Part shown: positions 692 through 57,189 of the stretch, in pieces
Position numbering within the stretch: position 1 is the first letter of the stretch
Layout of the letters: the number at the start of each line of letters is the position of its first letter
The notes under the pieces: model-generated
The model's database searches: none
Told to the model about the DNA's origin: nothing
The model's input: only the letters and a program-made list of their open reading frames with translations
Source: Escherichia coli
GTDB taxonomy: Bacteria > Pseudomonadota > Gammaproteobacteria > Enterobacterales > Enterobacteriaceae
Length of the DNA stretch: 64,000 bases
NCBI RefSeq assembly: GCF_046105845.1
Contig: NZ_CP151004.1
Reading direction: 5' to 3' (one strand)
Program-made: the position numbers and the translations under genes

Positions 692-1480
692 ATGCAAACG
701 ATTATCCGTGTCGAGAAGCTCGCCAAAACCTTCAATCAGCATCAGGCGCTGCATGCGGTTGATCTGAACATTCATCACGGTGAAATGGTGGCTCTGCTTG
801 GGCCGTCCGGTTCCGGCAAATCCACCCTTTTACGTCATTTAAGCGGTTTGATTACCGGCGATAAATCTGCCGGTAGCCATATCGAGCTGCTGGGCCGCAC
901 AGTCCAGCGCGAAGGCCGCCTGGCCCGCGATATCCGCAAAAGCCGCGCCAACACCGGCTACATCTTCCAACAATTCAACCTGGTGAATCGCCTGAGCGTA
1001 CTGGAGAACGTGCTGATTGGCGCGCTCGGCAGCACGCCATTCTGGCGCACCTGTTTTAGTTGGTTCACCCGCGAGCAGAAACAGCGCGCGTTACAGGCGC
1101 TGACCCGTGTTGGCATGGTGCACTTTGCCCATCAGCGCGTTTCCACCCTCTCCGGCGGACAGCAGCAGCGTGTGGCAATTGCCCGTGCGCTGATGCAGCA
1201 GGCGAAGGTGATTCTGGCCGATGAACCCATCGCCTCGCTGGACCCGGAATCGGCGCGCATCGTGATGGACACCCTGCGCGACATTAACCAGAACGACGGC
1301 ATTACCGTGGTCGTCACGCTGCATCAGGTGGATTACGCCCTGCGCTACTGCGAACGCATCGTCGCCCTGCGCCAGGGGCACGTCTTCTACGACGGCAGCA
1401 GCCAACAGTTTGATAACGAACGTTTTGACCATCTCTACCGCAGCATCAACCGCGTCGAAGAAAACGCGAAAGCTGCCTGA
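692..1480 (+). CDS. phnC: Phosphonate ABC transporter ATP-binding protein PhnC
   Basis: ORF track 262 aa; Walker [13 protein letters not shown] signature LSGGQQQR; GGGAGG RBS upstream. Confidence 0.95.
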
Positions 1481-1504
1481 CATCCCCATCATTGAGGAAA
1501 ACGA

Positions 1505-19541: not shown

Positions 19542-19671
19542 AATGTCTGCCGCGTGATGGCTGTCACGCGGTATTTCGTTTCGTCACGTCAAAACTGACG
19601 ACAGCCTGTTTTTCGTCAGAGTTTTGAATAAATAGTGCCCGTAATATCAGGGAATGACCCCAAATAAAATG

Positions 19672-19687
19672 TGGCATAAAAGATGCA
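19672..19687 (+). promoter_or_regulatory. Sigma-54 (-24/-12) promoter of fdhF
   Basis: TGGCATAAAAGATGCA: GG and GC spaced as in the TGGCAC-N5-TTGCA consensus, about 50 nt upstream of fdhF ATG. Confidence 0.75.
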
Positions 19688-19738: not shown

Positions 19739-21886
19739 ATGAAAAAAGTCGTCACGGTTTGCCCCTATTGCGCATCAGGTTGCAAAATCAACCTGGTCGT
19801 CGATAACGGCAAAATCGTCCGGGCGGAGGCAGCGCAGGGGAAAACCAACCAGGGTACCCTGTGTCTGAAGGGTTATTATGGCTGGGACTTCATTAACGAT
19901 ACCCAGATCCTGACCCCGCGCCTGAAAACCCCCATGATCCGTCGCCAGCGTGGCGGCAAACTCGAACCTGTTTCCTGGGATGAGGCACTGAATTACGTTG
20001 CCGAGCGCCTGAGCGCCATCAAAGAGAAGTACGGTCCGGATGCCATCCAGACGACCGGCTCCTCGCGTGGTACGGGTAACGAAACCAACTATGTAATGCA
20101 AAAATTTGCGCGCGCCGTTATTGGTACCAATAACGTTGACTGCTGCGCTCGTGTCTGACACGGCCCATCGGTTGCAGGTCTGCACCAATCGGTCGGTAAT
20201 GGCGCAATGAGCAATGCTATTAACGAAATTGATAATACCGATTTAGTGTTCGTTTTCGGGTACAACCCGGCGGATTCCCACCCAATCGTGGCGAACCACG
20301 TAATTAACGCTAAACGTAACGGGGCGAAAATTATCGTCTGCGATCCGCGCAAAATTGAAACCGCGCGCATTGCTGACATGCACATTGCACTGAAAAACGG
20401 CTCGAACATCGCGCTGTTGAATGCGATGGGTCATGTCATTATTGAAGAAAACCTGTACGACAAAGCGTTCGTCGCTTCCCGTACAGAAGGCTTTGAAGAG
20501 TATCGTAAAATCGTTGAAGGCTACACGCCGGAGTCGGTTGAAGATATCACCGGCGTCAGCGCCAGTGAGATTCGTCAGGCGGCGCGGATGTATGCCCAGG
20601 CGAAAAGCGCCGCCATCCTGTGGGGCATGGGTGTAACCCAGTTCTACCAGGGCGTGGAAACCGTGCGTTCTCTGACCAGCCTCGCGATGCTGACTGGTAA
20701 CCTCGGTAAGCCGCATGCGGGTGTAAACCCGGTTCGTGGTCAGAACAACGTGCAGGGTGCCTGCGATATGGGCGCGCTGCCGGATACGTATCCGGGATAC
20801 CAGTACGTAAAAGATCCGGCTAACCGCGAGAAATTCGCCAAAGCCTGGGGCGTGGAAAGCCTGCCTGCTCATACCGGTTATCGCATCAGCGAGCTGCCGC
20901 ACCGCGCAGCGCATGGCGAAGTGCGTGCCGCGTACATTATGGGCGAAGATCCGCTGCAAACTGACGCGGAGCTGTCGGCAGTACGTAAAGCCTTTGAAGA
21001 TCTGGAACTGGTTATCGTTCAGGACATCTTTATGACCAAAACCGCGTCGGCGGCGGATGTTATTTTACCGTCAACGTCGTGGGGCGAGCATGAAGGCGTG
21101 TTTACTGCGGCTGACCGTGGCTTCCAGCGTTTCTTCAAAGCAGTTGAACCGAAATGGGATCTGAAAACGGACTGGCAAATCATCAGTGAAATCGCCACCC
21201 GTATGGGTTATCCGATGCACTACAACAACACCCAGGAGATCTGGGATGAGTTGCGTCATCTGTGCCCGGATTTCTACGGTGCGACTTACGAGAAAATGGG
21301 CGAACTGGGCTTCATTCAGTGGCCTTGCCGCGATACTTCAGATGCCGATCAGGGGACTTCTTATCTGTTTAAAGAGAAGTTTGATACCCCGAACGGTCTG
21401 GCGCAGTTCTTCACCTGCGACTGGGTAGCGCCAATCGACAAACTCACCGACGAATATCCGATGGTACTGTCAACGGTGCGTGAAGTTGGTCACTACTCTT
21501 GCCGTTCGATGACCGGTAACTGTGCGGCACTGGCGGCGCTGGCTGATGAACCTGGCTACGCACAAATCAATACCGAAGACGCCAAACGTCTGGGTATTGA
21601 AGATGAGGCATTGGTTTGGGTGCACTCGCGTAAAGGCAAAATTATCACCCGTGCGCAGGTCAGCGATCGCCCGAACAAAGGGGCGATTTACATGACCTAC
21701 CAGTGGTGGATTGGTGCCTGTAACGAGCTGGTTACCGAAAACTTAAGCCCGATTACGAAAACGCCGGAATACAAATACTGCGCCGTGCGCGTCGAGCCGA
21801 TCGCCGATCAGCGCGCCGCCGAGCAGTACGTGATTGACGAGTACAACAAGTTGAAAACTCGCCTGCGCGAAGCGGCACTGGCGTAA
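19739..21886 (+). CDS. fdhF: Formate dehydrogenase H (selenoprotein); in-frame UGA at 20156..20158 read as selenocysteine
   Basis: ORF track pieces 19739..20158 and 20207..21886 are in one frame separated by TGA; combined 715 aa; CxxCxxGC 4Fe-4S motif at N-terminus; ...CARV-U-HGPSVAG context. Confidence 0.95.
20156..20204 (+). promoter_or_regulatory. SECIS element (SelB-binding mRNA hairpin) directly 3' of the fdhF UGA
   Basis: UGA followed by cacggcccatcggttgcaggtctgcaccaatcggtcggtaatggcg, which can fold as a stem-loop. Confidence 0.85.
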
Positions 21887-54338: not shown

Positions 54339-55322
54339 ATGGCAACACGAATTGAATTTCACAAGCACGGTGGCCCGGAAGTACTTCAAGCCGTAGAGTT
54401 CACTCCTGCCGATCCGGCGGAGAATGAAATCCAGGTCGAAAATAAAGCCATCGGCATCAATTTTATCGACACGTATATCCGCAGCGGCCTTTACCCACCG
54501 CCATCGCTACCCAGCGGATTAGGTACCGAAGCGGCAGGCATCGTGAGTAAAGTCGGCAGTGGTGTAAAGCATATTAAGGCAGGCGATCGCGTAGTCTATG
54601 CGCAGTCGGCGTTAGGCGCTTACAGCTCTGTGCATAACGTTAATGCGGATAAAGCGGCGATTCTGCCTGCGGCAATTTCTTTTGAGCAAGCTGCAGCATC
54701 CTTCCTGAAAGGCTTAACGGTTTATTATCTGCTGCGTAAAACCTATGAAATTAAACCTGATGAGCAGTTCCTGTTCCACGCAGCGGCTGGCGGCGTTGGC
54801 TTAATTGCCTGCCAGTGGGCAAAAGCCCTTGGGGCGAAACTTATCGGCACCGTGGGAACCGCGCAAAAAGCGCAGAGTGCGCTAAAAGCGGGCGCATGGC
54901 AGGTTATTAACTATCGCGAAGAGAATCTGGTCGAGCGGTTAAAAGAGATCACCGGTGGCAAGAAAGTGAGCGTGGTGTACGATTCCGTGGGCAGAGACAC
55001 CTGGGAGCGGTCGCTGGATTGCCTGCAACGCCGCGGCTTAATGGTCAGTTTTGGCAACTCATCAGGTGCGGTTACCGGTGTGAACTTAGGCATTCTCAAT
55101 CAGAAAGGCTCGTTGTATGTGACACGCCCTTCCCTGCAAGGCTATATCACCACGCGGGAGGAATTAACCGAGGCCAGTAATGAACTGTTCTCTTTGATTG
55201 CCAGCGGTGTGATTAAGGTCGATGTCGCCGAGCAGCAGAAATATCCGCTTAAGGATGCACAGCGTGCACATGAGATTCTGGAAAGCCGGGCGACGCAAGG
55301 TTCCAGCCTGTTGATTCCATAA
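54339..55322 (+). CDS. qorA: NADPH:quinone oxidoreductase QorA
   Basis: ORF track 54231..55322; ATG 54339 (MATRIEFHKHGGPEVL...) gives 327 aa; AAGGVG nucleotide-binding motif. Confidence 0.9.
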   Translation: MATRIEFHKHGGPEVLQAVEFTPADPAENEIQVENKAIGINFIDTYIRSGLYPPPSLPSGLGTEAAGIVSKVGSGVKHIKAGDRVVYAQSALGAYSSVHNVNADKAAILPAAISFEQAAASFLKGLTVYYLLRKTYEIKPDEQFLFHAAAGGVGLIACQWAKALGAKLIGTVGTAQKAQSALKAGAWQVINYREENLVERLKEITGGKKVSVVYDSVGRDTWERSLDCLQRRGLMVSFGNSSGAVTGVNLGILNQKGSLYVTRPSLQGYITTREELTEASNELFSLIASGVIKVDVAEQQKYPLKDAQRAHEILESRATQGSSLLIP

Positions 55323-55329
55323 AAGAAAT

Positions 55330-55361
55330 AGGGCTTCCACCTGGGAAGCCCTTTCTTTTTA
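55330..55361 (+). terminator. Rho-independent terminator after qorA
   Basis: agggcttcc-acct-gggaagccct hairpin followed by TTCTTTTT. Confidence 0.85.
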
Positions 55362-55487
55362 TAGTTCGGCTGTATGTAGGGTACAGCACGATGAATCTGT
55401 TAGAGGCGCAATAGTGACAGATTTGATTATCAATTCCTATTTTGTTCTAAGGATAAAACCTTAGGTTGTGATCATCCGCACAATACA

Positions 55488-55730
55488 TTAGTAACGCCAG
55501 CGGTCATAACGCTGATATTTCGGCACTTTTGGTGCTTTAATCGCCTTAATAACCCACACCACCGCAACTGCCAGTAGTAACCACGGCAGCAACTTAATCA
55601 TCAATGCCAGCATACCGCCGAGGAACATAATGGCCGTCGCCACAACCAGCGCGGCGATAATGCCCAGCAACGAAACGCCGGTGACCATCAGCATGACAAA
55701 AAAGCCAATCACAAAAAGTAGTTCCAGCAT
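55488..55730 (-). CDS. pspG: Phage shock protein G
   Basis: ORF track 55488..55940; ATG 55730 (MLELLFVIGFF...) gives 80 aa; GGGAGAG RBS. Confidence 0.85.
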   Translation of the reverse strand: MLELLFVIGFFVMLMVTGVSLLGIIAALVVATAIMFLGGMLALMIKLLPWLLLAVAVVWVIKAIKAPKVPKYQRYDRWRY

Positions 55731-55760
55731 GATGCTCTCCCAAATATGAAATCTCTTGCT

Positions 55761-55781
55761 GGCATTACAAGAATCATGCCA
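55761..55781 (-). promoter_or_regulatory. Putative sigma-54 promoter of pspG
   Basis: Minus-strand TGGCATGATTCTTGTA resembles TGGCAC-N5-TTGCA with one -12 mismatch, about 30 nt upstream of pspG ATG. Confidence 0.45.
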
Positions 55782-55863
55782 AAAATAATCTATTGATTTA
55801 ACAGCAAAACGCCCCGCGACGGTGCGCAGGGCGTGGTGAATTTGACTACTTTTTGGTGAAAAG

Positions 55864-56856
55864 TTAACGCTTATCTGCCACCAGTTTGAGCGCGTGTTCC
55901 AGCACGTTAATGTCAGCACCCGCTTTATGGGCATTTTCACTTAAATAACGCCGCCACTGCCGCGCGCCAGGAATACCCTGGAACAAGCCCAACATATGCC
56001 GGGTAATATGGCCGAGATACGTCCCCTGGCTGAGTTCACGCTCAATGTACGGATACATGGCGCGCACTACCGCCACCGGATCGGCATCGGTATCCGAGGA
56101 ACCAAAGATCTCTCGGTCTACCGCCGCCAGAATACCCGGATTCTGATACGCTTCGCGCCCGACCATCACGCCATCCATATGTTGCAAATGCGCTTTAGCC
56201 TCTTCCAGCGACTTGATACCACCGTTAATCGACATTGTCAGATGCGGAAAGTCACGCTTCAGTTGATACACACGCGGATAATCGAGCGGCGGGATTTCAC
56301 GGTTTTCTTTCGGGCTTAACCCCGAAAGCCAGGCTTTACGTGCGTGGATGATGAACATCTCACACTCGCCTTTGCCGGAAACGGTGTTGATGAAATCGCA
56401 GAGAAATTCATAGCTGTCCTGGTCGTCGATGCCAATACGCGTTTTCACCGTCACCGGAATCGACACCACATCGCGCATCGCTTTCACGCAGTCGGCAACC
56501 AGCTGCGCATTACCCATCAGACACGCCCCAAACATGCCGTTCTGCACCCGGTCAGACGGGCAGCCGACATTCAGGTTGATCTCATCATATCCGCGCGCTT
56601 CTGCCAGCTTCGCACACTGCGCCAGCGCCGCCGGATCGCTACCGCCGAGTTGCAACGCTACCGGATGTTCTTCTTCACTGTACGCCAGATAATCACCTTT
56701 ACCGTGAATAATCGCCCCTGTGGTCACCATTTCGGTATACAGCAACGTATTGCGGGAAAGCAGACGCAAGAAATAGCGGCAATGTCTGTCCGTCCAGTCG
56801 AGCATTGGTGCAACGCTAAACCGACCACTCCAGTGAACGTCAGTTTTTTCAGGCAT
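55864..56856 (-). CDS. dusA: tRNA-dihydrouridine(20/20a) synthase DusA
   Basis: ORF track 55864..56907 begins with TTG; ATG 56856 (MPEKTDVHW...) gives 330 aa; ATG 56901 is an alternative start. Confidence 0.85.
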
Positions 56857-57189
56857 TGCGCTGGTTTGGTTGATTTTTTGCATTTCAGAATTACCGTGCA
56901 TTTTCAAATGTAGAGATTATTTTATCGATATATCATGGGGTTATGTTATTCAGCATCACAGTTCAGGAGGCTCAATAGCGGGGTACTATACCATAACAAC
57001 AGGAAGCGCCTGTCTCATTGCAAAAGAAAATTGAGATCCTCTCAAGGCATGAAGCTCTCACGAAGTGAAGATATAATCTTATTAGATGTTAGCGTTGTGA
57101 AAAGCAATGATAAACAATTCAGCTTCGACGATAAATAAAAAATCACACATAAACCATGCTGATATATCTCGCGGCGAATAGTATTGATA

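Follow-up and report, generated by a model that had tools for sequence, protein, structure and literature searches.

The sigma-54, PspF-dependent promoter of pspG in Escherichia coli: layout of the control region and its conservation across Enterobacterales

Genomic Setting of the pspG Locus

The stretch of DNA analyzed here, called the window throughout, comprises 64,000 nucleotides of an Escherichia coli genome. According to the list of open reading frames, the genes around the site lie in the order dnaB (minus strand), qorA (plus strand), pspG (minus strand), and dusA (minus strand). In matching E. coli genomes, RefSeq gives the names dusA and pspG to the two genes which flank the spacer under study. 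Their coordinates are as follows.

55488..55730, minus strand: pspG coding sequence, an open reading frame of 80 amino acids plus stop with its ATG at 55730; named pspG by RefSeq in the matching E. coli stretch
55864..56901, minus strand: dusA coding sequence, the upstream neighbour, with its stop codon at 55866..55864; the dusA terminator lies within the pspG control region

Read on the minus strand up to the pspG start codon, the spacer between dusA and pspG is CTTTTCACCAAAAAGTAGTCAAATTCACCACGCCCTGCGCACCGTCGCGGGGCGTTTTGCTGTTAAATCAATAGATTATTTTTGGCATGATTCTTGTAATGCCAGCAAGAGATTTCATATTTGGGAGAGCATC-ATG. When 561 bases around the site were compared with E. coli K-12 MG1655, eight substitutions were detected, all of them outside the interval from the dusA stop to the pspG start. 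The differences are confined to a few substitutions in dusA, in pspG, and in the region 3′ of pspG, while the spacer is 100% identical. Because of this identity, results published for K-12 apply to the present sequence base for base.

The pspG gene has long been known as an effector in the phage-shock response to membrane stress. Its control by sigma-54, PspF, and IHF was published in 2004 and has been confirmed genome-wide since. The gene (yjbO/pspG) is reportedly driven by the sigma-54 polymerase and activated by PspF and IHF, and PspA is said to regulate it negatively.

Some features were also noticed on the other side of pspG. Two bases just past its stop codon differ from K-12. A hairpin at 55330..55352 is a two-way terminator common to pspG and the convergent qorA. 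It is included in the small RNA PspH, which is annotated in K-12 in the pspG 3′ UTR (about 55321..55431 in window coordinates, minus strand) and is a sponge of the small RNA Spf (PMC5145812). A scan of 55200..56000 against Rfam gave nothing meaningful, only sub-threshold matches on the pspG/qorA terminator.

Core Promoter and Leader

The elements nearest to the pspG start are these.

55782..55766, minus strand: sigma-54 core promoter TTGGCATGATTCTTGTA (17-mer), recognized by sequence, K-12 identity, and conservation
55755 ± 2, minus strand: predicted transcription start, from the geometry of the -12 element
55740..55735, minus strand: Shine-Dalgarno sequence GGAGAG of pspG; the species alignment keeps a GGGAGAG block here with a mean column identity of 0.77

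An initial annotation of this DNA had pointed to a sigma-54-type element upstream of pspG, and this observation is confirmed: the 16-mer TGGCATGATTCTTGTA occupies 55781..55766 on the minus strand, and the 17-mer listed above is the same sequence with an extra T at its 5′ end. The GG of the -24 element (55780-55779) is intact and the spacing between the two elements is exact, but the -13/-12 pair at 55768-55767 reads GT and not the consensus GC. The annotation had counted one deviation only, in the -12 element. This count is right if the consensus is written with TGGCAY; against TGGCAC-N5-TTGCW, however, the site has two mismatches, namely a T for the final C of the -24 hexamer, a very common variant, and a T for C at -12.

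The element stands upstream of pspG and points at the gene start. A published rule places the transcription start 19 nt from the motif centre, and the distance from start to gene given for K-12 pspG is 25 (PMC4591121). The start predicted here, 55755, lies 12 nt downstream of the -12 T and 19 nt from the motif centre, and the leader between it and the pspG ATG at 55730 would be 25 nt long.

Published work on K-12 bears on this sequence directly. The 17-mer is identical to the motif TTGGCATGATTCTTGTA of OS40, a sigma-54 ChIP-seq site which was assigned to pspG (promoter pspGp; FAT 15, PSSM 10.7) and is marked in EcoCyc as confirmed by experiment (Bonocora et al. 2015, PMC4591121); the agreement with K-12 holds base for base through the whole control region, including the 25-nt distance from start to ATG. 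In the same study, overexpression of sigma-54 induced pspG, one of only five such genes to respond in this way (PMC4591121). The RpoN holoenzyme was bound in the spacer between dusA and pspG in a gSELEX study, and the pspG site of Salmonella LT2, TGGCATGATTTTTGTA, was enriched 39-fold in ChIP-chip. PspF binds the upstream activating sequences (UAS) of both the pspA and the pspG promoters, pspG having one UAS and about 20-fold induction (Mehta et al. 2013). In vitro, sigma-54 together with PspF1-275 gives open complexes at the pspG promoter, whose -24/-12 elements were described as common with pspA. For the identical sequence, papers thus document occupancy by sigma-54, binding of PspF, and activity in vitro, and the interpretation of the element as a sigma-54, PspF-dependent promoter of pspG, already offered in the initial annotation, is supported.

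Conservation of the Core Promoter

How much of this case can be carried by the motif itself? In the whole window, TGGCAC-N5-TTGCW with up to two mismatches has 32 matches against 43.1 ± 6.5 in shuffled sequences. There is no enrichment, and the pspG site is not closer to the sigma-54 consensus than chance would allow. As the bare motif is not above chance, the motif count was not used as evidence; at the same time sigma-54 sites are short, and the lack of enrichment is therefore no argument against function. The case for the promoter rests on the position of the element in the spacer, pointing at pspG, on identity to K-12, on conservation, and on the published data.

A scan with the PspG protein, one genome per species, gave 80 loci from Escherichia, Citrobacter, Salmonella, Enterobacter, Klebsiella, and Kluyvera to Yersinia, Rahnella, Biostraticola, and Brenneria. 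In 79 of them dusA lies upstream of pspG in the same orientation; the one other locus is too short for a decision. The sigma-54 core upstream of pspG is likewise kept in 79/80 orthologous loci. In 79 of the 80 species, with Escherichia at one end of the range and Yersinia and Brenneria at the other, it follows the pattern TGGCAYG-N4-TTG(non-C)A, and it has the form TGGCAYG-N4-TTGTA in 74 loci.

The unusual -12 base is part of what is kept. At the position corresponding to 55767 (minus strand) the base is other than C in 79/80 species (T in 75, A or G in 4), and the consensus GC at -12 was found among the 80 loci in Salmonella diarizonae (L030) only. The variants of the -12 region are TTGCT in one locus and TTGAA or TTGGA in four. 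For pspA promoters, the unusual GT across species has already been remarked on (Huvet et al. 2011, PMC3041696).

In an alignment of 44 species the sigma-54 element has a mean column identity of 0.89, whereas the columns from -11 to +1 and those of the leader have only 0.38-0.41. An element kept at 0.89 beside columns that drift in this way points to selection acting on the element itself. This comparison bears on the possibility that the element is a chance motif and that a sigma-70 promoter in the spacer drives pspG. The chance-level number of consensus matches is in line with such an explanation. However, a search for a sigma-70-like promoter on the minus strand over 55300..56100 found none, and for this reason the explanation was dropped; the retention of the motif in about 80 species while its surroundings drift, and the ChIP-seq, gSELEX, and in vitro publications, which all indicate sigma-54, also speak against it. 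We consider that it has next to no chance of being right.

The dusA Terminator

Between dusA and the core promoter lies one more structure.

55799..55834, minus strand: intrinsic terminator of dusA, a hairpin at 55834..55809 followed by TTTGCTGTTA; about -79..-44 relative to the predicted pspG start

The terminator scan describes the hairpin, which follows the dusA stop codon, as a 10-bp stem with 8 G-C pairs and a 6-nt loop, and the RNA fold of the terminator has -21.5 kcal/mol. Across the alignment nine of the ten stem pairs change on both sides, and the observed values were reached by 0 of 500 shuffles; 91% of alignment cells are paired in the stem, against 40-48% when the partner is slid. 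Pairing which is kept while the sequence of the stem changes indicates a real RNA structure, and together with the T tract this identifies the Rho-independent terminator of dusA.

The terminator sits between the enhancer and the IHF site, both described below, and so inside the enhancer-promoter loop of pspG. The same nesting is seen from Escherichia out to Yersinia and Rahnella. The PspF half-site nearest to the promoter (ACCA-CGCCC) is overlapped by the 5′ arm of the hairpin. The simplest role that can be proposed for the terminator is to shield the pspG promoter from dusA read-through.

It may be asked whether pspG is expressed mainly by read-through from dusA, with the sigma-54 site poised and mostly silent. 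The two genes are adjacent and on the same strand in 79 of the 80 loci, the T tract of the terminator is interrupted (TTTTGCTGTT), and many sigma-54 sites of E. coli are transcriptionally inactive (PMC4591121). Against this, a strong covarying hairpin has been kept between dusA and pspG, and with a terminator so conserved, read-through is unlikely to supply most of the pspG transcript. The published 20-fold induction of pspG is PspF-dependent, and pspG goes up on overexpression of sigma-54. Taken with the evidence on both sides, expression mainly by read-through appears highly improbable, and the reading of the element as an active sigma-54 promoter is kept below.

A more elaborate idea is that the nested terminator represents functional coupling beyond compact packing and that, in addition, the conserved non-C base at -12 sets the basal leak of Psp promoters. 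If it were true, PspF occupancy or loop geometry could be adjusted when dusA transcription crosses the enhancer or when the G+C-rich inverted repeat is extruded. We regard this idea as improbable.

A separate observation concerns the octamer TTGCTGTT, common to pspG (55802..55809, minus strand) and K-12 pspA (about 963..970 of locus L002), in both of which it has the enhancer on one side and the IHF site on the other. It makes up the best ungapped diagonal between the two regions, and the pspG copy forms the end of the dusA terminator. Its occurrence in both is probably a coincidence.

IHF Site and PspF Enhancer Block

The remaining predicted elements of the control region have borders drawn from the sequence.

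55786..55798, minus strand: predicted IHF site of pspG, AATCAATAGATTA, a perfect match to the IHF consensus WATCAANNNNTTR; about -43..-31
55833..55862, minus strand: predicted PspF enhancer (UAS) block of pspG, TTTTCACCAAAAAGTAGTCAAATTCACCAC; about -107..-78, proposed from conservation and a pspA-like layout

The initial annotation had given the whole of 55790..55860 to enhancer sites for PspF. This can be retained for the block at 55833..55862, which is of PspF type, but not for the rest, which consists of the dusA terminator with its T tract and the IHF site.

The putative IHF site lies between the enhancer and the core promoter, and its CA and TA core columns are invariant in the 44 aligned species. 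The IHF consensus occurs eight times in the window, against 2.5 expected. The closeness of the site to the core promoter (-43..-31) was counted against the reading of the region as an IHF-assisted PspF promoter, but the layout of pspA is similar, with an IHF-like site at about -45..-33.

Within the enhancer block the half-sites are arranged as ACCA-N5-TAGT-N7-ACCA, and TTCACCA occurs twice, at a distance of 20 bp. The block is found once in the window, where chance would give 0 occurrences. The 12 columns which make up the half-sites show conservation in 90% or more of the 44 species, and the TAGT (55848-55845) and a CCA (55836-55834) among them are invariant. At the conserved columns pspA has the same base in 10 of 12 cases, against 7 of 20 for the rest of the columns (Fisher p = 0.01). 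A plain comparison of the two upstream regions is less telling. The best ungapped 30-nt match between pspG and pspA has 18/30 identities, a value reached by 31 of 300 shuffles and hence not significant, and for this reason plain identity was not used as evidence. The pspA-derived pattern TTCGCYAM-N12-TTCGCYAM, allowing up to two mismatches, has the pspG block as its sole match in the window; with 0.56 matches expected by chance, this is suggestive and has weight only through the place where the match lands. In position, at -107..-78, the block falls at about the 80-130 bp upstream where a UAS for PspF is looked for, and it aligns with the UAS region of pspA.

Could the block at 55833..55862 be something other than a PspF enhancer? 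It might belong to the 3′ end and terminator of dusA or be a site for another factor, PspF then binding elsewhere, for example inside dusA. The block does adjoin the dusA stop codon and overlap the 5′ arm of the terminator, and its similarity to pspA is modest. Since dusA is upstream in 79/80 loci, conservation of the enhancer is inseparable from the dusA neighbourhood. On the other side, the block can still be aligned in Yersinia, Rahnella, and Brenneria, where the 3′ coding end of dusA no longer aligns; the spacing of its half-sites is that of the pspA UAS region; its conserved columns are those it has in common with pspA; and it stands at the usual distance of an enhancer. Such an alternative is in our opinion unlikely, and the block is treated further as the predicted enhancer.

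Comparison with Other Sigma-54 Promoters

The pspA promoter of E. coli resembles the pspG promoter in layout. Its core, TTGGCACGCAAATTGTA, has the same unusual GT at -12, and both promoters answer to the activator PspF. The region upstream of pspA reads AAATTCGCCAC-TTGT-TAGT-GTAATTCGCTAAC, that is CCA-N5-TAGT-N7-GCTA (GCCA at the first half-site), which is the same layout as in pspG; the enhancer repeats are 20 bp apart in both, being AATTC in pspA and TTCACCA in pspG. The two promoters differ in other respects. The pspA enhancer, placed in the spacer between the divergent pspF and pspA, has the further effect of repressing pspF. According to the literature, pspA has two UAS and about 100-fold induction, in contrast to the single UAS and about 20-fold induction of pspG (Mehta et al. 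2013). Finally, the terminator of an upstream gene within the enhancer-promoter loop is a feature of pspG and not of pspA.

The window contains another sigma-54 promoter, and the pspG element is rightly described as the second.

19671..19687, plus strand: sigma-54 promoter of fdhF, GTGGCATAAAAGATGCA, identical to K-12 ChIP-seq site OS41; the fdhF ATG is at 19739

The open reading frame downstream of it starts MKKVVTVCPYCASGCK. As in pspG, the promoter of fdhF is of the -24/-12 type, coincides with a ChIP-seq site, and is confirmed in EcoCyc, but it has the consensus GC at -12, its activator is FhlA, and its signal is formate and anaerobiosis.

Proposed Mechanism and Significance

The data taken together indicate, with a probability of about 0.96, that the element is the known promoter of pspG controlled by sigma-54, PspF, and IHF, a member of the phage-shock (PspF) regulon. 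In the mechanism proposed, sigma-54 RNA polymerase would sit on the -24/-12 element (55782..55766) as a closed complex which is unable to start alone. The AAA+ activator PspF would bind the enhancer some 80-107 bp upstream (55833..55862), and a bend made by IHF at 55786..55798 would bring it into contact with sigma-54. Hydrolysis of ATP by PspF would then open the promoter, with transcription from near 55755. Without membrane stress PspA would keep PspF inactive; stress, such as mislocalisation of secretins, would free PspF, and pspG would be induced together with pspABCDE. The dusA terminator, placed between the enhancer and the IHF site, would block read-through from dusA.

The pspG promoter is already known and is an ordinary feature of E. 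coli. Two points alone can be called mildly new. The non-consensus base at -12 is strictly conserved in pspG promoters, and a terminator is nested within the enhancer loop. The significance beyond correct annotation is small. The locus is nonetheless a useful positive control, as a true sigma-54 promoter recognized from sequence alone, and a base-level map of the pspG control region is now available, in which the enhancer, the IHF site, the core, and the -12 T are kept across Enterobacterales.

Variation among Lineages

Several loci depart from the common arrangement. In place of TTTGGCATG, Citrobacter werkmanii NBRC 105721 (L027, about 1440..1460) has TTTGTCATG as its -24 element, with the essential GG broken; this could be decay of the promoter or a sequencing error.

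In Salmonella enterica subsp. arizonae (L018) and diarizonae (L030) the promoter lies 84-85 nt before the ATG, compared with about 51. The pspG leader of these two (about 1477..1500) contains a palindromic, REP-like insert, GACCCGGTAAGCGC..GCCGGGCA.

The representatives of Yersinia, Biostraticola, Rahnella, and Brenneria (L078-L081 and L083) have approximately 10-12 bp more than Enterobacteriaceae between the IHF site and the -24 element. This is about one helical turn, so that the face of the helix would be kept. Their leaders are also far longer: 75-206 nt separate the promoter from the ATG.
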